64,000 nt of DNA from Scenedesmus sp. PABB004 (Eukaryota). The stretch is from positions 4,588,001 through 4,652,000 of the forward strand of contig CM026547.1 of assembly GCA_014905635.1 (NCBI GenBank), given 5' to 3'. This document shows, piece after piece, positions 4,893 to 20,476 of the stretch (the stretch's first letter is position 1; each line of letters begins with the position of its first letter). The position numbers were made by a program, and so were the translations under genes. The notes beneath the pieces were generated by a model. That model was not told the origin of the DNA. It saw nothing but the letters and a program-made list of their open reading frames with translations, and made no database searches.

Positions 4893-7608
4893 ATGCTGCT
4901 CTTCGCGGGCCGAGGCCTCGCCCCCGGCGCGCTGGCGCCAGGGTGCGTGGCGGCCCTGCGCCACCTGGCCCGGGCGGCCATCCACGGCGCCGCGGCGCCG
5001 CTGCCCGGCGCGCCGGCGGCGCCCGGGCCGGCCGGCCCCCTCGGCGCGCCCAAGGGCGCCGCGGCCCAGCCGGGCCGTGCCGGGGCCTCGCCGGCGGCGG
5101 AGCCGATTGCCGAAAGCAGCCGCACCATCAAGGGCCTGCTGGACGGCCTGCTCCAGCAGCAGGAGGGCCGCCCCGGGCCCATGCCAACCGCGCAGGTGCG
5201 CCCGGCTCGCCAGGGGCCCGCCGCGGCGCCGCGCCCCCTCCCCCCGCCTCGGCGCCTCACCGCCGCGCCGTCGACACAGGGCGTTGACCGGCCGGCGGCC
5301 GGCGGCGGCCAACAACACCTCGACGCCGCCGCCGCGCCGGGCGCGGCCGACGCGGGCTGCCAGCCGTACGGCGCGCGGGCCAGCGGCGCCCAGGTGCGGA
5401 TGGACAGCCAGCTCATCTTTGACTCCTGCTGGCGGCGCTTCCGCGACAAGCACGGCATGGTGCGCAGCAGCGCGCTGCGCGTGCGGCGCCGCGCCGCCGC
5501 GCCCCCCTTTCTCTGGCGCGCGCGCTCACCGCGGCCGCGCCTCCGCCGCAGAACTTCTCGGCGCCGCGCGAGGTCATCTGGCTCAACGGCGCGCCCGGCT
5601 CGGGCAAGGTGTGTGCGCGCGCGCGCCCGGCGCCGGCAGCAGCAGCCCTCCCCGCTACCGCGCGCGGCCGCCCGCCCCTGCCGCCGCCGCCGCTTCACCC
5701 CTGCCGCCGCCGCCCGGGGCGCAGGGCGTGTCGACGCCGCACATCATGAAGGCGCGCGGCATGGCGCGCTCGGTGTGCGTGTCGTCGCTGCTGTCGGGCG
5801 CGCCCGAGGCGCGCGGGTTCATCGAGGCGGGCGAGATGATCGGCGACCACGTCGTCGGCGACCTGCTGCTTGAGGCGCTGCTCCTCCCCGCGTCGGCGGG
5901 GCTCACCACGGCGGAGCTGAACGTCGTCATCGACGGCTTCCCGCGCACCGCGGTGCAGGTGCGCCCCGCAGCAGCGGCGCGGCGCTGCGGCGGCGGCGCG
6001 CGCCCCGCAGCGGCGGGCGCAGCCCCGTCCGCGTGCAGCAGCAGGCGCGGCGGCCGGTCGGGGCGCCGCCCGAGCGCGCCGCGCCGCGCCGCGCCGGGCG
6101 GCAGGTCGACTTTGTGAAGCTGCTGGAGGACAAGCTGCGCTACCTGCACACCAAGTTCATGGACACGCCGCTCGGGCCGCGCTTCCCGCGGCCGGCGTTC
6201 AAGGTGGTCATGCTGTACGTCGACGAGGCCACCTCCATCGGCCGCCAGCTCGCGCGCGCAGCCGCGGCGCAGGCGCACAACGCGCGCGCCAAGGACGCCG
6301 GCGGGCGGGAGGCGGGACTGCGCCTCGCCGAGGAGCGGGTGACGGACGCGCTGCCGGATCGAGCTCACAAGCGGTATTCCATTTTCCGACAGCACTACCC
6401 GGCCATCCTGCGCCTCAAGCAGGCACGCGGCCGCCGGGAGGCAGCGCGCGGCGCGCCGCAGCGTCCCGCGGCGCCCGGCGGCGGCGGCGGCGTGCGCCAG
6501 GCGGCGCGCGCTCACCCGCGCGCCCGCCCCCATGCCCCGCGCCCGCCGCCTGCGCCCGCGCAGTTCTTTGCGTTCCACCTCATCGACGCGTGCGGCAGCC
6601 CCAGCGACACGCAGGAGCAGATCCTGCAGGAGCTGCGCTACCAGTCGAGCCTGGACCTCAGCGAGGAGGCGTACGCGGCCATCAGGTGCGCATGCGTGCG
6701 CACGCGCGCACGTGGCAGGGACGGGAGGGGGGGGGGGGCACCGCGGGCGGCGGCGGACGGCGCACGCGGGGCGGCGGCGCCCGACGCGGCCCGCACACGC
6801 CGCGCCGCGCAGGCACCTGCCGCTCGCCAAGGACCTGCAGCACACCGCGCGGCAGCAGCTGGTCAGCCGGCTGGAGGCCTACGCGCGGCAGCAGCGCCCG
6901 CTCTTTGCGCGCGTGCTCGCGCTGCTGCAGGGTGAGGTGCTGCCGCTGCTGGAGCAGGGCGCGCTGTGCGGCGCGGCCGAGTGGGTCACGCAGGAGGAGC
7001 TCTTTGCCGCGCACCCCGCGGCGATCGGGATGCTGCTCGACGTCGTGACCGACCGCGGCTTCTCGGCGCACTACGTGCGCGAGGCGCTGCCGGTGCCGTT
7101 CCGCTTTGACGCGGCGAGCGGCGCGATCGAGACGCGCGTGTCGCCGCTGCACCGCTTCCGCTTCGCCTTTGCCGCGCCCGGCCTGCGCGACGGCGGCGCG
7201 CTCAAGGCGCTCGAGATCGCGGCGCGCATCACCGAGGCGAGCCGCGGCGGCGCCGGCGGCGCGGGCGGCGCCGACGCGGGCGCGCCCGGCGCCGCCGCCG
7301 GCGGCGGCGCGTCGCCGATCACCGAGTCGTTCATCCCGGCGCACCTCGACGTGGAGGCGCGCATGCGCGCGCAGGAGGCGGCGCGCGGCCGCGCGCGCGT
7401 CGCGCTCGCGGGCGCCGGCGGCGGCGCCGCCGCGGCGACGGCGGCGCGCGCGCCGTGCGGCGGCGACGCGTCGGCGTGCGGCGGCGGCGCCGCCACGGGC
7501 GCCGTGGCCGAGGGCGAGGGCGACGTGCTGGTCATCCACCGCTGCACGCGGCCCGACATCGGCTGCGGCCACGCGCACGAGCTGGAGGTCGTGTCGGCCA
7601 GCGGCTGA
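4893..7608 (+). CDS. Adenylate/nucleoside-monophosphate kinase family protein with N-terminal targeting peptide and long C-terminal extension
   Basis: Spliced product contains the P-loop VIWLNGAPGSGKG, VVIDGFPRTAVQV and FHLIDACGS...ELRYQSSLDL; about 5 introns, one with a GC donor at 6423. Confidence 0.85.
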
Positions 7609-9095
7609 GCGCCGGCCGGGCGCCGCGTGCGCGCGCACAGGCCTCTGACGACCGACCCGTCCCGCGGCCGCCGCCACCGCGCGCGGCCGCATCCCCTGGC
7701 GCGGGGCGCCCCCCTGTTCTTTGCCGGCGTGTGCGCGTGTTTGTTTCGCAGTTGAGACCGCCCTTGCGTGCGTGCGCCCTTGCGCTCCCCAGCAGGCACA
7801 CTTGTCTTGTCTTGACGCGCCGCGACCCCGCGCGCGCGGCGCCACCGCGCCGTGGCAGCGGCGCGCGCAGCGACCAGCGCCGCAGCGGCAGCCCGCTGCG
7901 CGCCCCGGCGCCGGCGCGTGGATGCGGCGCGGCGCACGGCGGCGGCGGCGCGCCGCGTGACGCGCAGCGCGCGTGCAGCCCTCTGCTGTGCCACGCTCGC
8001 GGGCGCGGCCGCTGCTGCCGCCGCCGCCGCCGCTGCTGCTGCGGCGGCGCTCGGCGCCGCCTTGACTTGAGCTCCCCGGCTTGATTGGCGGCGCGGCGCA
8101 CTCGCGCGCTCGCGCACACACGCACTGCCTTCAACGCAAACCAGCACCCCGACACACGGGCGCGCGCTCGCGGCGCGATCGGCACCATCGCCGGCGGCCG
8201 GCCGGGCCCACGGGGGCCGCGGCCGCCGCCGCGCGCAGCCGACGCGCCGCCGCGCGCGCCGCGCCATGCCGCGCCAGGCATGCGCCCCCTGCTGCTGCAG
8301 CTCTCTCTCTCCCGAACACTGCTGTTGTTTCCCCGGGCCCACGTGTGCGTGCGTGCGGCTGCTTGGCACCGACCGACAAGAAGCACGAGCTCGCGCGCAG
8401 CGATGTGTGCCGAGCGTGCGGGCGCGCTCCAGATTGGGCGCGCGCGCGGGGCGGGGCGGGCGGGGCGTGCCCGCCATCATTCTGGCGGGCGCCGCGCCCG
8501 CGCGGTCTGCTCGGCTCGGCTGCTGGGCTGTCGCTGGGCTCTGGGCGGGGCGCACGCGTCGCGCGCGGCGCGGCGCGCCGCCATCGTGGCGCGCCGCCGC
8601 GGCGCGGCGCGCGGCGGCCCCGCAGGCTCGGCACCTGTACTCTGATGCTGCTGCGCTGCTCGACGAGGCTGCTGGAGCTGCTGCTGTGCGACGAGGCACC
8701 GTTTAACCGTCGCGCTCGCTGAGCCGCCGCCGCCGAGGTCCGGGCCCCTCCGCTCGCTCGCCAGCTGATCCTCCCTCCCTCCAGCGCGGCAGGAGGCAGC
8801 AGAGGGGCCCAGGAGAAGGTTTGGTTGCAGCTTCCGCCCATCCCGACATCCCGGCCCTTGCCTGACGGCGCCCAGGTGCGAGAGATTTCGTCGCGAGGCA
8901 GGCCGGGGGCGCCGGCGGCAGGCACGGGCGCGGGCGGGCATCCCTGCGCCCGGCCCCGCCCCGGTCTCGCCGCGGGGCGAGCGCCCCCCAGCGGCCGCCC
9001 GTCGCGTCGGGGCGTGACACCGCCGCTGTTTCGTGCCCCGGCGCGCCGCTCCGGCCCGCAGGCGCGCCGCTGGGGGCAACTTTGTGGGGGAAGCC

Positions 9096-12000
9096 ATGAA
9101 TTCTGCCCCGGGCGCCCCGCCTGGGCGACTATCCGACTGCTCCCCGGCCTCCCCGGCGGCCGGCGGCGTGCGGAGTCGGGCCTGGTGGCCCGCGACGGCG
9201 CTCGCCCGCAGCAACGACCCGCGGCGCCGCGAAGACACGCCCGTCCTGTCCCCGGTGTCTTCGCTGTTCGCCTACGCGCCGCTGGGGCGCGCGCCCGGCG
9301 GCGCGGCCGACGGCAGCGACGGCGGCGACGGCGGCGGCGTCGCGCAGCACGCTGCGCGCGACGCGGCCGACGGGGCGCGCGCCGCCGTCGGGCCCGACGA
9401 GGCGGCCGACGACGACGACTTGGACGACCTGCTGAGCGGCCTCCTGGGCGGCGGCGGCGGCGGGCAGCTCTCCACGACCGCGGCGAGCTCCGCGACGCCC
9501 TCCGCGCCCGCCTCGCTGGACCTCGCGCGCTCCTCCGACGCGTCGGAGAGCGGCGCGCCCGCCCCCGCGTCGCCGCCGGCGGCGGCCGCCCGCGGGCCCC
9601 CGGCTGCTACTCCCCCCCGCTGGGCGCGTTGGCGGCCGAGGACTCGGCGGGCGACGACCCGCCCCTGCTCAGCCGGCGGCGCGGCGCGCCGGCGAGCCCC
9701 CCGAACGGCGTCGTGCCCGGCAGCCCCGCGGCGCCCGCGCGCGGCCTGCCCGCGTGCCCGGCCCGCCCGAACGACGGGCAGGGGCCGCCGGCGGCGCAGC
9801 AGGCCGCGGCGGCAGGTTGCGCCGGCGGCGGCGGCGGCGACGCGCCCAGCGGCGGCGCGCCTGGCGCCGCGCTGTTCACGCCGCACCCGGCGTGGGCGGC
9901 GCAGGGCGCGTGCGTGCGCCGCGTGGCCGTGTTCCTGACCCCCGCCTCGCGCGAGCTGCTGCTGTCGCTCGCGCCGCCGCTGCACGAGCTCGTGAGCGCC
10001 GACCACATGCCCCTCGCGACGGCGCCGCCGATCGAGCACGTGCTGCTGTCGTGGCCGCTCGGCGCCGAGGTGCCGCTCGCGGTCATCGGCGGCGCGGCCG
10101 ACGCGCGCGTGCAGGCGGTCGCGGCCGACCCGCCGCCCTGGCTGCCGCCGACGACGTGCGCCGCGACGTACATCACGCTGTCGTGCGCGCTCGGCGCGCG
10201 GCCCGAGGAGGGCGGGCTGCTCGTCCGCGACGCGCTCGCGCGCGTCGCGCTCGGCGGCGGCGGCGCCGCGCCGCCGGGCGCGGTCGGCGCGTACCGCGCC
10301 TGGGACGAGCCGCTGCCGCTCGTCGGCCGCGTCGGCGTCCTGCTCGGGCCGCCGCCGGGCGCCGCGCCGGGCGGCGGCGGCGGGCGCGAGGTCGTCGCGT
10401 TCAGCCCCGAGGAGATGGAGGCGAGCGGGCTGGTCACGGTCGGGCGGGACAACCTCGAGCGCTTCTACCGCCGCCACGGCGACCGCCTGGGCAAGACCAA
10501 GGTGCGCGGCGCGGCGCGCGGGCGGGCGCGCGGCAGCGGGCGGCAGCAGCGGCCGGCAGCAGCGGGCGGCGGCAGCGGCCGGCTGCAGCGGGCGGCGCGT
10601 GCGCGGTCCCCGCTGACGCCGCCCCGCCCGCAAGCGCGCGCGCGCAGCCCGACACCCTGCCCCGGCAGCCCAGCCCGCCCGAGCCCTACTCGCCGATGGC
10701 GCAGCCCTCGGCGCGCATGCCGTTTGCCCCCGCGGCCGGCGGCGACTGCTGGAGCCCGCTGCTGGCGGCGGCGCCGGGCGGTGCGCCGCCGCCGTACCAG
10801 CCGCCGCTGCTGCAGCTCGGCCCGCCCGCGACGCCCGTCGGCGGCGACGGCGACGACGACGACAGCGCGAGCACGCGCAGCGGCAGCAGCGGCAGCGCCG
10901 ACGCGGTGCAGTTCAAGAGCGCGGTGCGCGCGGGCGACGCCGTGGCGCTGCGCCCGTTTGTGCCCGTCGCGGGGCGCGCGCGCCTGGTGACGGGCCGCGT
11001 GCGCGAGTTTGCGTGCGACGAGGCGTTCCAGGGCAACGGCGTGATGGTGGTGCTGGACGACAACACGATCGGCTTTGTCACGGCGGTGCTGGTGGATGGC
11101 GCGGCCGCGTCGTCCCCGCCGCCGCCCGGCAAACGCGCCAGGGCGGGCGGCAGGGCGAGGCGCGGGCACCGCGCCAGCGGCGGCAGCGGCGGCGGCCTGC
11201 AGCCGGGCGCCTCGGCCGACGCGGCGGAGCTGAGCGAGTGGGCGCTGCGCGCGCACGACGGCGCGGGCCTCGGCCTGCGCCTGCGCAGCGAGGCCGACGC
11301 GGCGCATGACATGGAGCTGTGGGACCAGTTTGACGCGCTGCAGCGCGAGCACGGCGAGGCGCTGTGCAGCGCCATCCTCGCCGAGTGCGGGCAGGACTTT
11401 GTGGAGGCGATCGCGCTCATCAGGGCGCAGCACGCGCGCCTCAGCGCCGGCTCGCCGAGCTCGCCGGCCGCGCCGCCGGCGCCGCCGACCGCGGGCGAAG
11501 AGCTCGCGCAGCAGCTGGCGCTGTCGGTCGGGCTCGCGCCCGGCGGCGTGCTGCAGCTGTGCCGGCTGGCGCCCGAGGCGTCGCCGGAGTGCGTGGTGGA
11601 GCTGCTGCAGGCGGCGGGCGGCGACGTGGCCAAGGCGGCCGACGCGCTCATGACCGCGCAGGCCGCCGCGGAGCACGACCGCGACGGCGGCGTGCGGGCG
11701 GCTGCGGCTGAGGCCGCGGAGGAGGCGCAGGCGCGCGCGGCCGCGCTCAAGGCGGCGGCAGCTGCTGAGGCCGCCGAGGAGGCGCGCGCGCACGCGGCCG
11801 CGATCGCGGCGGCGGCAGCGGCTGAGGCCGCCGAGGAGGCACGCGAGCACGCGGCCGCGCTAAAGGCGGCGGCGGCGGCTGAGGCCGCCGAGGAGGCGCG
11901 CGCGCACGCGGCGGCGATCGCGGCGGCCGCGGCGGCCGAGGCCGCCGAGGAGGCGCAGGCGCGCGCGGCCGCGCTCAGGGCGGCGGCAGACGCCGAGGCT

Positions 12001-13485
12001 GCAGAGGAGGCGCAGGCGCACGCTGCCGCGATCGCGGCGGCGGCGGCGGCTGAGGCCGCCGAGGTGGCGCAGGCGGCGCAGCGCGACTCGGCCGCGGCCA
12101 GCGCCGCCGCAGCCCACAGCCCCGCGCACGACCCCGAGCTCGCTGCCGCGGTGGGCACGCTGTGTGCCATGTTCCCGGAGCTGCAGCCGGGCGTGGCGGA
12201 GATGATGCTGCAGGACCACGGCGGCCACCTGGAGGAGGTGCGGGCGCGGCGGCCGCGCGCACGCCGCCGCAGCCGCGAGCGCGGCGCCATGCTCTACCGC
12301 GCCCGCCCGACGACGCCGCGCGCCCCGACCGACGCGCCTACCCCGCCGCCGCCGCCGCCCTGCGCGCAGGCCGCGCGCTCCGTGCAGGCGGCGCAGCAGC
12401 GGGAGCATGCGGCGGCGCCCGCCAGCGGCGGCGGCAGCGCCCGCGCGAGCCCGCTGCTCGCCGCGCACGCGGGGCTCAGCGAGGCCGACCAGCTGGCCAT
12501 GCTGGAGGCTATGGGGGAGCTGGACCTGGACGACCGCCGCCGGTCCGGCCGCGCGCCCGCGCAGGCCAGGGCGCAGCAGCAGGCGTGCGCCGGCGGCCGC
12601 CCCGGCAGCACGGCGCGCGCGCCCCCGCGCCCTGCGTTGCCGGCGCGGGCAGCAGCGCCGCCGCGGCGGCGGGCTCGCGCCGCGCGGGCGGCTACTGCCC
12701 GCCGGGCTCGCCGCCCCGCCCGCCGACCGCGCGCGTGGGCACGCCGCTCATGGCCCAGCAGCAGGGCGCGGCGGGAGGCCACCAGGACGACGCCAAGCGC
12801 GCCGCCAAGTGCGCGGCCAGCCCCGCCCGCGCGCTCCGCTCTCTGCATCGCCGCGCCGCGCCGTGCCGCGCACGCCCTTGACCGCCGCCGCCGCCGCGTT
12901 CGCAGGGAGGCGGCCGACAAGCTGTACGAGCGCTCCAGGACGCTCTCCAACGCGGCGCAGGTCTACATGACCGCCGCGCAGGCGCTGCTCGCGGCGGGCG
13001 ACGCCGCGGGGTTCAGGGCCAAGAAGGACGCCGCCGACGCGGCGCGCGCGGGGAGCAAGGCCGCGTGGGACGAGGCGCAGCGCCTCTCCTGGTCGGCCAA
13101 CAACGCCGCGGAGCAGGAGTGGACGGTCGACCTGCACGGCCTCGGCACGAGCGTCGCGCTGCGCAAGTTTGCGGTGCAGTTTGACGGTCTGTCCGCCATG
13201 GACAGCCCCGGCGGCATCAGGTACAAGGTCGTCACGGGCAAGGGCAAGCACAGCGAAGGCAACGTCCCGCGCATCAAGCTCGGCGTGCTGCAGTTCCTCG
13301 AGGAGCGCCGCGCCGCCGAGGTGGCGGCGGCCGGCGGGCGCCCCTGGGCCGTGACGTGGGAGGTCGACCCCAGCAACGAGGGGGTCGTCTACGTCTACTT
13401 CCCCGCCGCCGGGGAGGAGGAGGAGGAGGAGGAGGCGCAGGGGGAGCAGCAGCACGACCGGGGGCGGGGCGGCGGCAGCGACTAG
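9096..13485 (+). CDS. Multidomain Smr endonuclease (2H-phosphoesterase-like, YwbE-like, CUE-like, Ala/Glu repeat, DUF1771, Smr); Cue2/N4BP2/NONU-1-like
   Basis: C-terminal TVDLHGL...YKVVTGKGKHS...NEGVVYV (Smr) preceded by a DUF1771-like helix; CUE-like LCAMFPELQPGVAEMMLQDHGGHLEE; N-terminal VAVFLTPASRELLL...ADHMPL...D.RVQAV...YITLS. Apparent 1-nt frameshift at the C7 run 9612-9618. Confidence 0.8.
11707..12072 (+). repeat. Coding tandem repeat, 57-bp (19-aa) unit, about 6.4 copies
   Basis: AEAAEEAQARAAALKAAAA / AEAAEEARAHAAAIAAAAA units alternate within the Smr gene. Confidence 0.9.
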
Positions 13486-13822: not shown

Positions 13823-15938
13823 ATGGTGGGCGTGACGCTGGAGATCCCGGCACGGGGCCTGGCGGAGCACGAGGACGACCGGCAGAGCGTGGACCGGCAG
13901 AGCGTGGCATCGATTCAGAGCGTCGCGACGAGCACCTCGCTCGCGCAACGGCTCCGTGACCTCAATCTCGATTTTGACGAGGGTGTCAAGTCGCTGGACG
14001 CCGCCGACGCGGAGGACAAGGAGCACGGCAGCGAGCGCAGCGGCGGCGCGCCGCTGTCGCCGACAGCAGCGGACGCGCTCGCCGCGCGCCCGCCGGCCCC
14101 CGGCGCGGGGGCGGCGCTGTGCGAGGAGGACCTGGTGCCGCCGCCCTACTCCCTGCACCTGCTGCACCGCGAGCCGCCGCTGCAGGTGCGCGCGGGCGCA
14201 GCGGCGCGGGCGTGGGCGCCGCCAACGCGTGCCGCTGACCCGCGCGCCGCCGCGCGCCCAGGTCTGCTGCCGCCTGTTTGAGCGCCGGGGGCACCCGCCG
14301 CTGCCGCTGAAGCGCATGAGCATGGTGCAGGTCGAGGACTTTCGCACGCACGGCTACGTCGTCGTCGACGGCCTGCTCAGCCGGGACGCCGCGGCGCGCA
14401 TCAAGGCCGAGACGCTGCGCATGGCCGCGCGCGGCCTGCTGCAGCCCGTGAGCGCCGCCAACCTGGGCGTGCTCTCGCCCGCGGCCGCCACGCCGCACGC
14501 GGCGCGGCCGGGGCTGCTGCTGAGCAGCAGCCCCGCCAGCCCCGGCGGCCACGCGCTGCTGCACCCGCGTGGCAGCGGCGCCGGCGGCGGCGCGCACCAC
14601 CCGGCGGCGGCGCAGCAGCAGCAGCAGCAGCCGGCGCCGCGCGGCGTGGCGCCGCGCTGGGGCGAGCTGCGTGTGCCGCTCGTGCTCGGCCAGCCGCCGG
14701 CGGACACCGCCGCGCTGGCCCCGGTCATGGCGGCCCTGCAGGAGCTGCAGGTGCAGCTGGGGGCTGCGCACGTGGCGCCCCGGCGACCGCCCGCCCGCCC
14801 GCGCGCCGGCACCGCCGCTCACGCCGCGCCGCGCCACGCCGCGCGCACGCAGGACGACCTGGGCGAGTTTGTGCGGCTGCGCAGCAAGGGCGCGGCCGAG
14901 TACGCGCTGTGCCAGCTGCCGCCGGGCGCGGCGCACGTGCCGCGCCACCGCGACGCGCTGCCGGACGACGGCCGGGGCAGCGGCATCGCGGCGGCCGCCG
15001 CGCTACCGCCGCCGCAGCAGTCGCACGTCAAGTGGGCGGCGCCGCCGCCGCCGCCGGCTGGCGCGGAGCCGCACGTGGCGGGCAGCACCAGCAGCAGCTG
15101 CAGCGAGCTCAGCGCCACCGGGGGCCCGCAGCAGGCGGCGCCGCCGGCGCCGGGCGCGAGGCAGCAGCAGCCGCAGTTGCAGCCGCAGCAGGCGCAGCCG
15201 CAGCAGCAGCAGCAGGCGCAGCAGCCGCAGCAGGCGCAGGCGGCGCCGGCGCTGGCGGCGCAGCAGCTCGCGCTGTCTGGGCCGGCTGCGCGGCGCGTGA
15301 GCATCTTTGTGTTTGTCAACCACGACTGGGACCGCGAGCACGGCGGCGGGCTGCGGCTGTGGCCGCCGCAGCGCCCCGTGGGCCCGCCCTCGGCGACGGC
15401 CGCGTCGGCGACCGCGCGGCGCAGCCCGACGAGCAGCGACGCGGGGACGACGTTCAGCGAGATCAGCGACTGCGGCTCCTCGCTGCGGTGCGGCGCGCTC
15501 GACGCGCGCGCGCTGCTCCCGCGCTGCCGCGCCGCCGCTCACGCCACCGCGCCGCCCGGCGCGCGCAGCGTGCCCGTGCTCGGCAGCACGACGAGCAGCG
15601 TCGTCGCCGAGGCGTCCGCGGCCGACCACGACACGTACAGCCTCGACGGCCTGAGCGTCGCGGAGAGCGAGGTCGAGCGGCAGGGCTTTGAGTGGTGCGC
15701 GCGGCGCCGCAGGCGGACGGCGCCCCGCGCGGCACCGCCGCCGCGCGCTTGGGTGGGACGCCCGCCCGCTCGCCCCCGCAGGGTGGAGTGCGAGGGCGGA
15801 GAGATGGCGTTGGACATTGCTCCGCTCGCGGGCCGCGTCGTCGTGCTGCTCAGCGGCGCGGTGGAGCACGCGCTGCTGCCCGGCGGCGGCGCGGGGCCGG
15901 GGAGCGACATGGCCTTCGTGCGCGCGTGGTGCGGGTGA
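13823..15938 (+). CDS. 2OG-Fe(II) oxygenase, EGLN/PHD prolyl-hydroxylase-like
   Basis: GYVVVDGLL, PRHRD (HxD), RRVSIFVFVNHDWDREHGGGLRLWP, DIAPLAGRVVVLLS..VEH; 4 GT-AG introns. Confidence 0.8.
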
Positions 15939-16274
15939 CGCGCGGCGCTGAACCGCAAAGGGTTGCAACCGGCAAAGCCCCGCCGCCGTCTCCACCGCCT
16001 GCCGGCGCCGCCAAGGGCATGGGGCGCACACCTCGCGATCGGCGGCTCGTGCGCGAGGGCGGCGCTGCGGCAGCGGCGCAGCGGCGGCACGCCGCCACGG
16101 CGCCCCGGCCGCGCAGCCTCCTTCCGCCGATTGCCGCACGCGGCAAGCCCGAAGTCGTCCGCAGGCAACGCGCAGCAGCTGCCCGTGCGAGCCGGCTCCC
16201 GCGCGACAGGGCCCGCGTGAGCAGCGGCGGCAGCGCCGTTCGGCAGAGGGCCCGCGTGCAGCAGCGGCGCCGCC

Positions 16275-19200
16275 ATGCCGCGCCCGGTCGTGGTCGGCGC
16301 GCTGATCGTCGCCGCGTGGGCGCTGGAGCTTGGCGTGGTCACTTGGTGCGCGGCGCGGCGCGCGTCGCTGCTGCCGCGGCAGCCCCCGCCGCTCGCCGTT
16401 GGCTGTTTGTCATCGCGCCGCGCCGCCCGCAGGTGCACGCTGTGGCCCATTGCCGGCCACATACACGACCTGCGGCGGTGCGCGCCACGCGCTGCTGGCG
16501 CTGCGCGCGCGGCGGCGGCCGGCCGGCACGCGCCGCCGCCGACCACCACGCGCGTGCCCGCCCCGCAGGTTTGCGGGCTGGGCGCAGCTGTACCAACCGG
16601 GCACGTCCACGCTGGACGTGTGGGTGCTCGCGCTCGCACGCGTGGCGGTGCTGGCGGCGCTGTGGGCGGCCACCGTGCCCGGCGCGGCGCGGCGGCAGCG
16701 CAGCCTCGGCGGCAGCCTCGGCCCGCCGCGGCCGCCCAACTGCGAGCAGGTGCGGCCGCGGCGCGGGGCCGGGGGGCTCTCTCTCTCTCGGGCGCCCGTC
16801 ACGGCGCCCGCCGACGCCCGGCCCGCAGACGGCGTTTGGCGCGGCGCTCGCGAGCGGCGTGTGCGAGCTGCTGCTGCTCGCGAAGGCGGTCGCGGTCGCG
16901 GTGTGGGCGCCCGACGCGCTGCTGCCGCCGCGGGGCCAGCCGGGCGTGGCGGGGCTGCTGCCGAGCTACGGCGCCATCGTCGCGAGCCTGCTGTGCAGCC
17001 TGGGCTCGGGGCTGGCGCTGCGCGGCGCGATCGCGGCGCGCGGCGCGCCGCCGCGCTGCGGCAAGGGCGACGAGGAGGCGGGCGACGCCGCGGCGCCGCT
17101 GCTCGCGCGCAGCCGCGGCGCCGCGAGCTGGGAGGTCCCGCAGAACAACAAGGCCCTGCGCGGCGACGGCGGCGACGGCGACGACGGCGACGACGCGTCG
17201 CCCCCCGTGCAGCCGGCGACGGTGCTCGAGCTCGTGCGGCTGTCGCTGCCGGACGCGCCACTGCTCGTTGTCGCGTTCCTCGCGGGCACTGCCGCCGCGC
17301 TCGCGGCCGCGTGCGTGCCGTACTACACGGGGCAGATCATCGACTACGCCTCCATCGACCCAGACAGGCGCGCGGCGGCGCCGCCGCTGCCACGGCGGCG
17401 CAAACGCACGCGCGCGCGCCACGCGCCGCCCGCGCCGCGCCGCGCCGCGCCGTCTCCACACGGCCCCTCCGCGTGCCGCGCCCTCTCACCCGCCAGGCGG
17501 CGCTTTGCGGCGACGACGGGCAAGCTCGTGGGCGTCGCGGGCCTGTGTGGTGTGTTCACGGGCCTGCGCGGCGGCGTGTTTAGCGTCGCGATGTGGCGCC
17601 TCAACGTGCGCCTGCGCCGCGCGCTCTTCGGCGCGCTGCTCGCGCAGGAGGTGGGCTTCTATGACAAGGTCCAGACCGGTGCGGCGGCGCGGCGCGCCCG
17701 GGGGGCCGCGCGCGCGGTCAGGGGCGGGGGCACCGCCGCCGCCGGCCCCGCGGCGGCGCGCAGCGCGGCCGCGCGGCGCGCGTCCCCGAGCCGCGCGTGC
17801 ACACGCGTGTCTCGCCCTCGGCGCGGCGCGCGCAGGCGAGATCAGCAGCCGGCTGAGCGCCGACACGACGACGGTGAGCGACTCGGTGTCGCTCAACCTC
17901 AACGTCCTCGTCCGCAGCGCGACGAGCGCGGCGATGGTGCTGGGTTTCATGTTTGCCGCGAGCTGGCGCCTCACCGTCGTCACGTTTGTGCTCGTGCCCT
18001 GCGTGCTGCTCATCTCAAAGGCGCGCGGCCGCGGCCGCGGGCCGCCCCGCGCCGGCGCTGGCAGTGGCTCGTGCGCACCCGAGGCGCGCCCGCCGCCGCT
18101 CACCCACCCCTTGGCTCGCCCCGCGCCGCCCGCTCTGCCGCCGCGCCCCCGTGCAGGTGTATGGCGCCTTTTACCGCCGCCTCTCCAAGAAGGCCCAGGC
18201 CGCGCTCGCCGAGGCCAACGCGGTCGCGGAGGAGGTGCTCTCTGCGCAGGCCACGGTGCGCTGCGCTCGGCCCTTGGCCGCGTGCCCCCGCCCCGAGCCG
18301 GCCTGCACGCGCGCGCGCGCCCGCCGCGCCGCACACGCCCCGCACACACGCGCACGCCCCGCACAAGCGCCGCAGGTGCGCGCGCACGCGGCGCAGGGCT
18401 CCGCCGCGGCGTCATACGCCGACCGCCTGGCCGTCTTCTACGCCCTCATGGCCCGCCAGGCGGGCGTGTACGCGGTGAGTGCTGGTCGCAATGGCTGAGT
18501 GAACTGAACTCATAACACAACACGAGCCGCGGCGCCAGGGGCGGCGGCGACAGCGGTGCTCACGCCCGCCCGCCGCTCGGCGCGCGCAGGTGTACGCCGC
18601 GACCACAACCTTCCTGCCCAGCCTCGTCGTCGCGACCGTCCTCTACTACGGCGGCTGCCTCGTGCTCGGCGGCGAGGTGCGCCGCCCTGCGCGCCGCCGC
18701 GCCCCGCGCGCGCGCCGCCGCGCCCCACCCCGCGCCGCCGCGCCCCACCCCGCCGCCGCGTCCGGCGCGTCCGCCGCGTCGCCGCGTCCCCGCCGCGCCA
18801 GATGTCTGCTGGCGCGCTGGTGTCGTTCATGCTGTACCAGCAGAGCCTCAGCGCCGCGTTCAGCTCCATGGGCGACGTCTTCAGCGCGCTCACCGCCGCG
18901 GTCGGCGCGGCGGACAAGGTCGGCGCCGCCCCGCGCGGCACACACCCCACGCCACGCGCCCCCGCGCCCGCCCGCGGCGCTGCGCCGCGCCCGCGCCGAC
19001 GCCGCCCCGGGGCGTCCTCGCCCGCCGCCACCGCTGCGTGCGCGCGTCCAGGTGGTGGAGCTGATCAAGCGCGTGCCGCGCGAGCCGCCGCCGGGGGCGT
19101 TTGTGCCGCCGAGCGGGCGCCTCGTCGGCAGCCTCGCGCTGCAGAGCGTCGTGTTTGCATACCCCATCCGCCCGAGCACGCGCGTGCTCAACTGCCTCAG

Positions 19201-20476
19201 CCTCGCGGTCAACCCGGGTGCGCCCGGCTGCCCGCCGGCGCGGCACGGGCCCGCTGCCCTGCCCGCCCTCTGCACGACCGCGGCGGCCCCCGCCGCCGCC
19301 CACGCTCGCCGCCGCCGCCGCGTCCGCCGCCGCCGCGCCGCGCCGGGGCGCGCAGGCGAGGTCGTCGCGCTGGTGGGCCCGAGCGGCGGCGGCAAGAGCA
19401 CGATCATCAAGCTCCTCCAGCGCTTCTACGTCCCCCTGTCCGGCGCGGTGCTGGTGGACGGACTCGACGTCGGCGCGTACGAGCCGCGCTGGCTGCGCCG
19501 CCACGTCGCGCTCGTGGCGCAGGAGCCGGTGCTGTTCGCGCGCAGCGTGCGCCGCAACATCATCTACGGCCTGGAGCCCGAGGACGGCGCGGCGCCGCCG
19601 AGCCAGGCGCGCGGGCCGCGGCGCGGCGAGACCCGGGGGTGACCCCGCGGGGCGGGCGGGCCCGCGCCGGCGCCGCGCCGCCGCCGCGCGACCGACCACG
19701 CGCGGCTGAGCCCTTGCCCGCCCCGCCGCGCCGCGCCGCAGGAGGCGATCGAGGAGGCGGCGCGGCAGGCCAACGCGCACGACTTTGTGTCGGCGTTCCC
19801 TGAGCGCTACGAGACGGGCTGCGGCGAGAAGGGCGTCGTGCTGAGCGGCGGGCAGAAGCAGCGCATCGCCATCGCGCGCGCACTCGTGCGGGCGCCGCAG
19901 GTCCTGCTGCTAGACGAGGCGACCTCCGCGCTCGACACCGAGTCGGAGGTGCGGCGGCGCGAGGGCCGCGGTGCTCTCACCGGCGGCGCAGGCCATGCTG
20001 ACGGGCAGCGCGCGGCACGCGGCACGCTCTCGCCGGCGCCGCGCCGACCCGGCCCCGCCGCGCCGCGCCGCGCCGCGGCGCTGCAGGCGGTCGTGCAGGA
20101 GGCGCTGTCGCGGCTGATGGCGGGGCGCACGGTCGTGGTCGTGGCGCACCGGCTGAGCACGGTGCGCGACGCGACGCGCATCTGCGTCGTCGCGGGCGGC
20201 GTGGTCGCGGAGCAGGGCAGCCACGATGAGCTCATCGGGCGGGGCGGGCTGTACAGCCAGCTCGTCGCGCGGCAGCTCACCGCCAGCCCCAGCGGCGCCG
20301 CGCTGAGCGCGCTGAGCCGCGGCCTCAGCGCGAGCAGCCTGGGCGGCCTCAGCGCCGGCGACGAGCTCAGCGAGGGCAGCCGCGGCGGCAGCGTCGACGC
20401 GCCGGCGCTGAGTGGTGGCGCGGCGCTGACGCCGCGGGGCGCGCGCGCGTCGCCGCCGCCGCGGCGGCCCGAGTAA
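16275..20476 (+). CDS. ABC transporter B family half-transporter (TAP-like)
   Basis: TMD motifs ([21 protein letters not shown]), Walker [10 protein letters not shown], signature [15 protein letters not shown], Walker [13 protein letters not shown]-loop VAHRLST; about 13 introns. Confidence 0.95.

Follow-up and report, generated by a model that had tools for sequence, protein, structure and literature searches.

A green-algal CUE and Smr nuclease fused to a CNPase-type 2H domain that looks catalytically dead in Scenedesmus

Introduction

An Smr-type cut in messenger RNA (mRNA) is expected to leave a 5'-OH and a cyclic phosphate (PMC6949252, PMC6598757), and the fate of the cyclic-phosphate end that no-go cleavage gives the upstream fragment is an unresolved question. 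A gene of the green alga Scenedesmus sp. PABB004 raises it from an unusual side: does one protein join the nuclease that would make such an end to a phosphodiesterase fold that would open it? The gene lies on the forward strand, at 9096-13485 of a stretch of 64,000 nucleotides (GCA_014905635.1, contig CM026547.1, positions 4,588,001 to 4,652,000), referred to here as the window, which has ~79% G+C and short introns of the GTGCG...GCAG type. An initial annotation of this DNA had proposed an Smr nuclease fused to a 2H-phosphoesterase-like domain, CUE-like domains and a YwbE-like module, acting as a cut-and-process enzyme in ribosome surveillance. All the modules that it named were found, roughly where it had placed them, and the fusion stands; a working cut-and-process enzyme does not, as the HxT residues of the 2H domain are replaced in this copy. 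The reading preferred here, to which a probability of about 0.6 is given, is that the protein belongs to the NONU-1/N4BP2/Cue2 group of ribosome-surveillance endonucleases in chlorophytes, and that its 2H domain would be a pseudo-phosphodiesterase in Scenedesmus and active in most relatives.

A CNPase-like 2H domain fused to Smr across green algae

The 2H domain occupies 9872-10348 (+). Its exon matched no Pfam or NCBIfam family, and a single-sequence search of the PDB gave only TEG12 and one other match, which were rejected as low-complexity. A profile built from four sequences retrieved 665 proteins at E <=0.001 among 1.84 billion, 150 of the 665 being listed, and an alignment of 72 sequences yielded a structure model with a predicted local distance difference test score (pLDDT) of 92. 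Compared with 48,161 solved chains, this model has mouse CNPase as its best match (Z 16.6, root-mean-square deviation 2.5, 151 aligned residues), at 16% sequence identity; the second-best match reaches Z 6.8, and the rows with Z >5 are mostly 2H enzymes. Foldseek and a profile search agree, so that the 2H-like segment of the initial annotation is borne out by the model as a 2H fold, and it is CNPase-like.

The domain shares a chain with Smr well beyond Scenedesmus. Searches of 182 sequences with our own profiles found both in 14 proteins from separate clusters, and Raphidocelis Rsub_01805 is a fifteenth; 13 of the 14 had seeded the Smr profile, and 11 of these match Pfam Smr independently (E <=0.0033). 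The named sources are Tetradesmus obliquus, Raphidocelis subcapitata, Symbiochloris irregularis, Auxenochlorella protothecoides, Chlorella desiccata and Ostreobium quekettii, which span chlorophycean, trebouxiophyte and ulvophyte algae; judged by sequence, the architecture is conserved in at least three green-algal classes. Several fused relatives from metagenome or run assemblies have only 410-610 residues and are probably unspliced frames, and several stop near the position of intron 1 of the Scenedesmus gene, as intron read-through would predict. In a quick tree of 2H domains (134 rows, after removal of short or gappy ones), the 16 Smr-fused domains, including that of the window, fall in one branch of 54 rows (SH-aLRT, a branch-support test, 92), from which all 14 RNA-repair proteins are absent. 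Scenedesmaceae-type green algae supply the nearest proteins, with 69% identity to the Tetradesmus protein P0004 over the Smr region.

Loss of the catalytic motifs in the Scenedesmus copy

The two HxT motifs of the family are well kept: in all the 2H domains aligned, the first is intact in 141 of 150 and the second in 137 of 144, while both are intact in 14/15 full-length 2H and Smr relatives and in 42/48 algal-type rows (chosen by the author; one of them, P0045, was later placed outside the algal branch). In the window, the first motif reads H-M-P at 10004-10012, where Thr is lost, the second reads Y-I-T at 10169-10177, where His is lost, and the Tyr or Phe that the family has at position +5 from the first His is replaced by Thr. 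This last position corresponds, by spacing and not by superposition, to Phe235 of CNPase, in which changes at His309, Thr232 and Phe235 abolish or almost abolish catalysis (PMC4643303). The window domain therefore looks catalytically dead, and with the HxT residues replaced and the matching CNPase changes known to kill activity, the copy cannot be accepted as the cut-and-process enzyme initially proposed. The motifs are also altered in five other algal-type rows (P0005, P0024, P0026, P0042 and the Ostreobium protein P0064), and the six altered rows are scattered at separate places of the quick tree.

Among 56 columns conserved in 21 close relatives, the window departs at 12, those relatives at 0-8. 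Its frame is nonetheless open, and 0 of 125 four-fold degenerate codons end in A or T, compared with 10-21% A+T in introns and flanks; both observations fit a pseudoenzyme that is still translated, the codon test being a weak one, especially for a recent event.

The Smr nuclease and the CUE-like units

The C-terminal part of the protein (12906-13404, +) consists of a DUF1771-like helical N-extension and an Smr nuclease domain. The Smr domain matches the Pfam profile at E 0.0036, under the cut-off, and carries the DLHG motif at 13129-13140 (+) and the TGKGKHS motif at 13234-13254 (+), both intact, as previously noted; DLH, GxG and the S are invariant in 12/12 Smr family members. A profile of these 12, run against 177,635 solved sequences, gave three hits, all of them N4BP2, the best being human N4BP2 at E 9.7e-23, and the match starts within the helical N-extension. 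The extension itself has no Pfam DUF1771 match in the window; this family was matched in 5 of the 51 relatives scanned (E 1.4e-4 to 2.9e-3), and the assignment of the window segment comes from its alignment with these. At the R of the TGRG loop of N4BP2, the window has K; we take this position to be that of R402 in Cue2. In yeast, the R402K change of Cue2 is tolerated (PMC6598757).

Upstream of the extension there are three CUE-like units, in line with the initial annotation. The third (12130-12237, +), whose last helix resumes after intron 2, has an MFP motif and matches Pfam CUE at E 3.4e-4, just under the cut-off, and the relative P0032 matches CUE at E 8e-15. The other two are recognised by profile comparison with the third: unit 2 (11500-11655, +) at 96.9%, its counterparts matching Pfam CUE in P0004 (E 0.014) and P0010 (E 3.5e-4), and unit 1 (11311-11436, +) at 92.8%, a divergent unit that lacks the MFP motif and has no Pfam match alone. 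No family match to a P-loop polynucleotide kinase was found in the scanned window exons or in the full-length proteins P0004 and P0180.

The relatives of the 2H domain could point in another direction. Among its distant matches, many are multi-domain RNA-repair proteins, of the 'Swiss army knife' kind, with a weak match to tRNA_lig_CPD (PF08302) in a Pfam scan of 51 proteins (the long matches, with a few short ones added), and others stand alone, many of them viral in Atlas clusters. It could thus be argued that the family works outside mRNA surveillance, in the cleavage and repair of ribosomal or transfer RNA (rRNA, tRNA) or in antiviral RNA destruction, with the 2H domain healing tRNA or rRNA ends or degrading cyclic nucleotides. 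A preprint on NONU-1 proposes defence roles for some Smr proteins (10.1101/674358), and in the surveillance pathway the P-site tRNA also serves as a cyclic-phosphate substrate (10.1101/2022.04.28.489582). The layout of CUE units, N-extension and Smr, together with the N4BP2 match, fits the cleavage of mRNA at collided ribosomes, however, and the defence idea of the preprint, in the text available, concerns expanded families, whereas the window holds one copy of the gene and no second. A role outside surveillance is on balance unlikely.

Further searches with the 2H family gave little. Two loci came from a metagenome scan (L001, 3.2 kb, and L002, 1.8 kb), the first of which ends near the barrel exon and so stops short of the Smr exon. 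A scan of prokaryotes, queried with a single stand-alone 2H protein, found one locus, and a phage search found nothing. The same 2H family is joined to DUF4258 in P0070 and P0149, possibly another pairing of 2H with a nuclease-like domain, and P0106, of 2207 residues, combines it with RNA ligase, 3'-5' exonuclease, R3H, kinase and prim-pol domains.

The reading frame and its break near 9608

Once joined across four GT-AG introns, the gene gives a single open frame of 1148 codons from 9599 to the stop codon at 13485. Intron 1 (10502-10647, +; 146 nt, GTGCG...GCAG, phase 0) links the 2H exon in frame to the remainder; intron 2 (12238-12369, +) is followed by the exon 12370-12584, intron 3 (12585-12652, +) by a small, uncertain exon (12653-12808, +), whose skipping keeps the frame, and intron 4 (12809-12905, +) by the Smr exon, which closes with an acidic tail and the stop codon (13405-13485, +). 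A codon-model gene finder arrived at this structure too, apart from leaving out the small exon, and since it was trained on the same gene, it is not independent of this gene model. That the 2H domain could be a separate gene was considered and ruled out, because there is no stop between it and the donor at 10502 and because 15 relatives carry both domains; by the gene model and these relatives, 2H and Smr would form one protein chain in Scenedesmus, as first suggested. A GTGCG...GCAG pair at 8876-9061, just 5' of the ATG at 9096, resembles an intron of the 5' untranslated region.

Near 9608 the frame changes. The first coding stretch (9096-9607, +), which starts from that ATG and encodes a low-complexity N-terminus, is read in a frame other than the downstream one; it holds a RAWWP motif at 9177-9191 (+), followed by two patches, one acidic (DDLDDLL, 9414-9446, +) and one of Ser and Asp (9522-9554, +), all of which are shared with relatives up to ~9554, and the downstream frame has a conserved DxPLxSxR patch from 9656, so that conserved motifs on either side fall in different frames. 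A continuous frame would need one more base at 9597-9618 (+), between a run of five C (9597-9601) and a run of seven (9612-9618), and the codon model places the best switch at 9607-9610. No canonical intron that restores the frame was found among the listed splice sites, the candidate pairs being of the wrong phase or deleting conserved motifs. The break is probably an assembly error rather than a real frameshift, which is the simplest reading, if unproven, and the full-length protein would result from translation through it.

If the break were real, the N-terminal part would be untranslated and the 2H domain decaying, the locus being then a pseudogene or encoding, from an ATG further downstream, a shortened YwbE-CUE-Smr protein. 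The frame break and the catalytic loss do affect the same region of the gene; in the quick tree the window 2H domain has the longest end branch among the nearest rows (0.36, against 0.017-0.22); and the gene finder called only three frame changes in the 64 kb, which makes such errors uncommon in the window. The other two, at 20410 (+) and 573 (-), may be artefacts of the model. Nevertheless, the break is flanked by two C runs, 301 codons follow without a stop or further frame change, RAWWP is kept upstream, and several of the replacements need at least two base changes, yet 44 of the 56 conserved columns are retained; the four-fold codons argue in the same direction, if weakly for a recent event. 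A real break is accordingly held to be improbable.

The YwbE-like barrel, other elements and neighbouring genes

A module of 70 residues between the 2H domain and the CUE units (10897-11106, +) is modelled as a small beta-barrel (pLDDT 89) of SH3/Tudor/KOW-like type and resembles YwbE/DUF2196. It scores E 0.03 and 14.7 bits against Pfam DUF2196 (PF09962), under the gathering score of 25. A profile of six barrel sequences, compared with 19 YwbE proteins (from 21 loci, one not recovered and one incomplete protein left out), matches at 96.6% over 60 columns with a score of 48.7, where the highest score among 60 column shuffles was 17.2, and recovers 19/19 of them. The reverse search, with the 19-protein YwbE profile, is weak (Raphidocelis at E 1.9e-4, the window exon at E 8), and the HP[HR]G motif of YwbE is replaced by [FY]Q-x-x-G in the algal module. 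As the Pfam score and the motif fall short and the reverse match is weak, the module is called YwbE-like, as it originally was, and not a member of the family. Its fold search returned generic Tudor/SH3/Sm barrels only (Z <=4.5), and Foldseek gave no match at E 0.001, so no specific fold family is assigned; DUF3104, an Atlas suggestion at 0.77, was followed as a lead only and set aside, the fold searches pointing to no specific family. Of the 15 full-length relatives, only 4 have the barrel. Among the 21 YwbE loci no common neighbourhood was seen by eye, and in two longer frames, L011:876-1346 (-) of 157 aa and L015:766-1692 (-) of 309 aa, YwbE is N-terminal, possibly in fusions.

The helical repeat between CUE-like units 2 and 3 has, by period analysis, a period of 57 nt, or 19 aa, and is an Ala/Glu-rich tandem array of 6.6 copies (11697-12075, +). 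It has no counterpart in the relatives aligned and falls in a gap against P0004 and P0010. The RAWWP of the N-terminus belongs to an RxWWP motif that is conserved across chlorophyte relatives, whose N-termini are otherwise unalignable. RxWW occurs upstream of the 2H domain in 25/42 algal-type proteins and RxWWP in 22/42 (a list partly picked after the motif was noticed), compared with RxWW in 1/29 other proteins. We know of no described partner for this motif.

As for the surroundings, the upstream gene (5364-7608, +) shows adenylate-kinase-like words by eye (GAPGSGK, DGFPR) and no Pfam match on the three unspliced frames scanned. The downstream gene (13823-15938, +) has a weak match to 2-oxoglutarate-Fe(II) oxygenases (E 3.2e-4), and an ABC transporter membrane region lies at 16238-18512 (+).

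Relation to known systems

Human N4BP2 and Caenorhabditis elegans NONU-1 share with the algal protein CUE units, a helical N-extension, an Smr domain with DxH and a fused RNA end-processing domain. In N4BP2 and NONU-1 the latter is a P-loop polynucleotide kinase, for the 5' end, whereas the algal one has the fold of a 2H phosphodiesterase and would serve the 3' end; the algal protein also has the YwbE-like barrel and the RxWWP motif in addition. The suggestion that the 2H domain takes the end-handling position of the kinase does not hold, because the 5'-OH that the kinase acts on belongs to the downstream fragment, and the cyclic phosphate that a 2H enzyme would act on belongs to the upstream one. 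Working on opposite ends of the cut, it would complement the N4BP2 kinase and not replace it. Yeast Cue2 similarly ends in an Smr domain with D-x-H, preceded by several CUE or CUE-like units; unlike the algal protein, it has no end-processing domain in the descriptions available, and yeast relies on Trl1, acting in trans, to process the 5'-OH (PMC6949252).

Vertebrate CNPase and the cyclic phosphodiesterase domain (CPD) of fungal Trl1 (PF08302) are of the same 2H sub-type as the algal domain by structure, and CNPase is able to rescue a yeast Trl1 CPD mutant (PMC5434554). CNPase pairs its 2H domain with a polynucleotide-kinase-like domain and has no nuclease, and the window 2H domain lacks one catalytic His and one Thr. 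Bacterial and archaeal YwbE, to which the algal barrel has a full-length profile match, is small, mostly stand-alone and marked by HP[HR]G, whereas the algal barrel is embedded in a eukaryotic nuclease. MutS2, which acts at ribosome collisions, combines a KOW domain with Smr (PMC10897456) and offers a loose parallel for this barrel.

The initial annotation did not recognise the architecture from model organisms. It is real, but it is a variant of a known nuclease family and was briefly anticipated in print: one sentence and Fig. S3C of the NONU-1 preprint mention homologues fused to a 2'-3' cyclic phosphoesterase (2H) domain (10.1101/674358). These combine 2H and Smr as the algal protein does and may well be the same family; in its available text, the preprint states no organism, mechanism, 2H sub-type, YwbE module or catalytic loss. 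In the literature as far as accessible, no description of the algal protein or of a eukaryotic YwbE-like domain was found; the journal version of the NONU-1 study and the 2016 survey of RNA repair by Burroughs and Aravind may contain one, and PMC13069868, in the portion available, has no bearing on either. What the present analysis adds is the CNPase type of the fold, the barrel of YwbE-like kind, the RxWWP motif and the repeated catalytic loss, including that of the window copy.

Proposed mechanism

In the model proposed here, whose activities and ribosomal target we infer, the CUE units would bind ubiquitinated collided ribosomes, and the Smr domain would cut the mRNA in a metal-independent manner, with 5'-OH and 2',3'-cyclic phosphate ends as the result. 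The CNPase-type 2H domain fused to it would next, in most green algae, open the cyclic phosphate to a 3'-OH/2'-phosphate on the upstream fragment, and the end healed in this way would be ready for 3'-5' decay, tailing or handling by a ligase. The YwbE-like barrel may be an optional accessory module, possibly binding the ribosome or RNA. In the Scenedesmus copy, with its Smr motifs intact, the 2H pseudoenzyme may have been retained as a fold or as an end-binding module. A need for cyclic-phosphate processing is suggested by Angel1, a human cyclic phosphatase that is required for non-stop decay (10.1101/2022.04.28.489582). The N4BP2 match of the Smr profile, the HxT motifs kept in most relatives and the CNPase-like 2H fold, with multi-domain RNA-repair proteins among its distant relatives, also speak for the model.

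Several observations weigh against this reading. The Angel1 study saw no cyclic phosphate accumulating on its reporter (10.1101/2022.04.28.489582), which leaves the need for a healing step unproven, and with 6/48 algal-type rows altered in their motifs, 2H activity looks dispensable in some lineages. The frame break near 9608 could be real. Only 5 of the 14 Smr domains aligned have K as the basic residue of the TG-x-G loop, and the orthology with NONU-1, N4BP2 and Cue2 is one of similarity, not of a tree including Cue2, Ypl199c and plant Smr proteins. That the 2H domain never acts on the Smr product, being a binding or scaffold domain family-wide, would suit the motif losses at separate places of the tree, but is very unlikely, given the intact motifs in most algal-type rows, in all but one of the full-length relatives and in the three named algal classes.

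Implications

Granted the surveillance reading, a broader and more doubtful proposal can be put forward. The kinase domains of N4BP2 and CNPase are close kin, and N4BP2 (kinase and Smr), the algal protein (2H and Smr) and CNPase (kinase-like and 2H) may represent three pairings of cut-and-heal functions. Green algae might then use a nuclease that opens its own cyclic-phosphate product, broken mRNA at stalled ribosomes might be a natural substrate of CNPase-type enzymes, and YwbE might serve as a barrel that binds the ribosome or RNA next to an Smr nuclease, much as the KOW domain does in MutS2. If this were true, a step of no-go decay that current models leave open would be kept within one algal protein, the long-sought natural substrate of CNPase-type enzymes would be at hand, and YwbE would gain its first functional context.

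With nuclease and phosphodiesterase in one algal chain, the fate of the cyclic-phosphate end becomes addressable with two point mutants in one gene, and the lineages with a dead 2H domain, such as Scenedesmus, would serve as natural controls. The family may in this way offer a context in RNA surveillance both for the CNPase-type fold and for the uncharacterised YwbE family.

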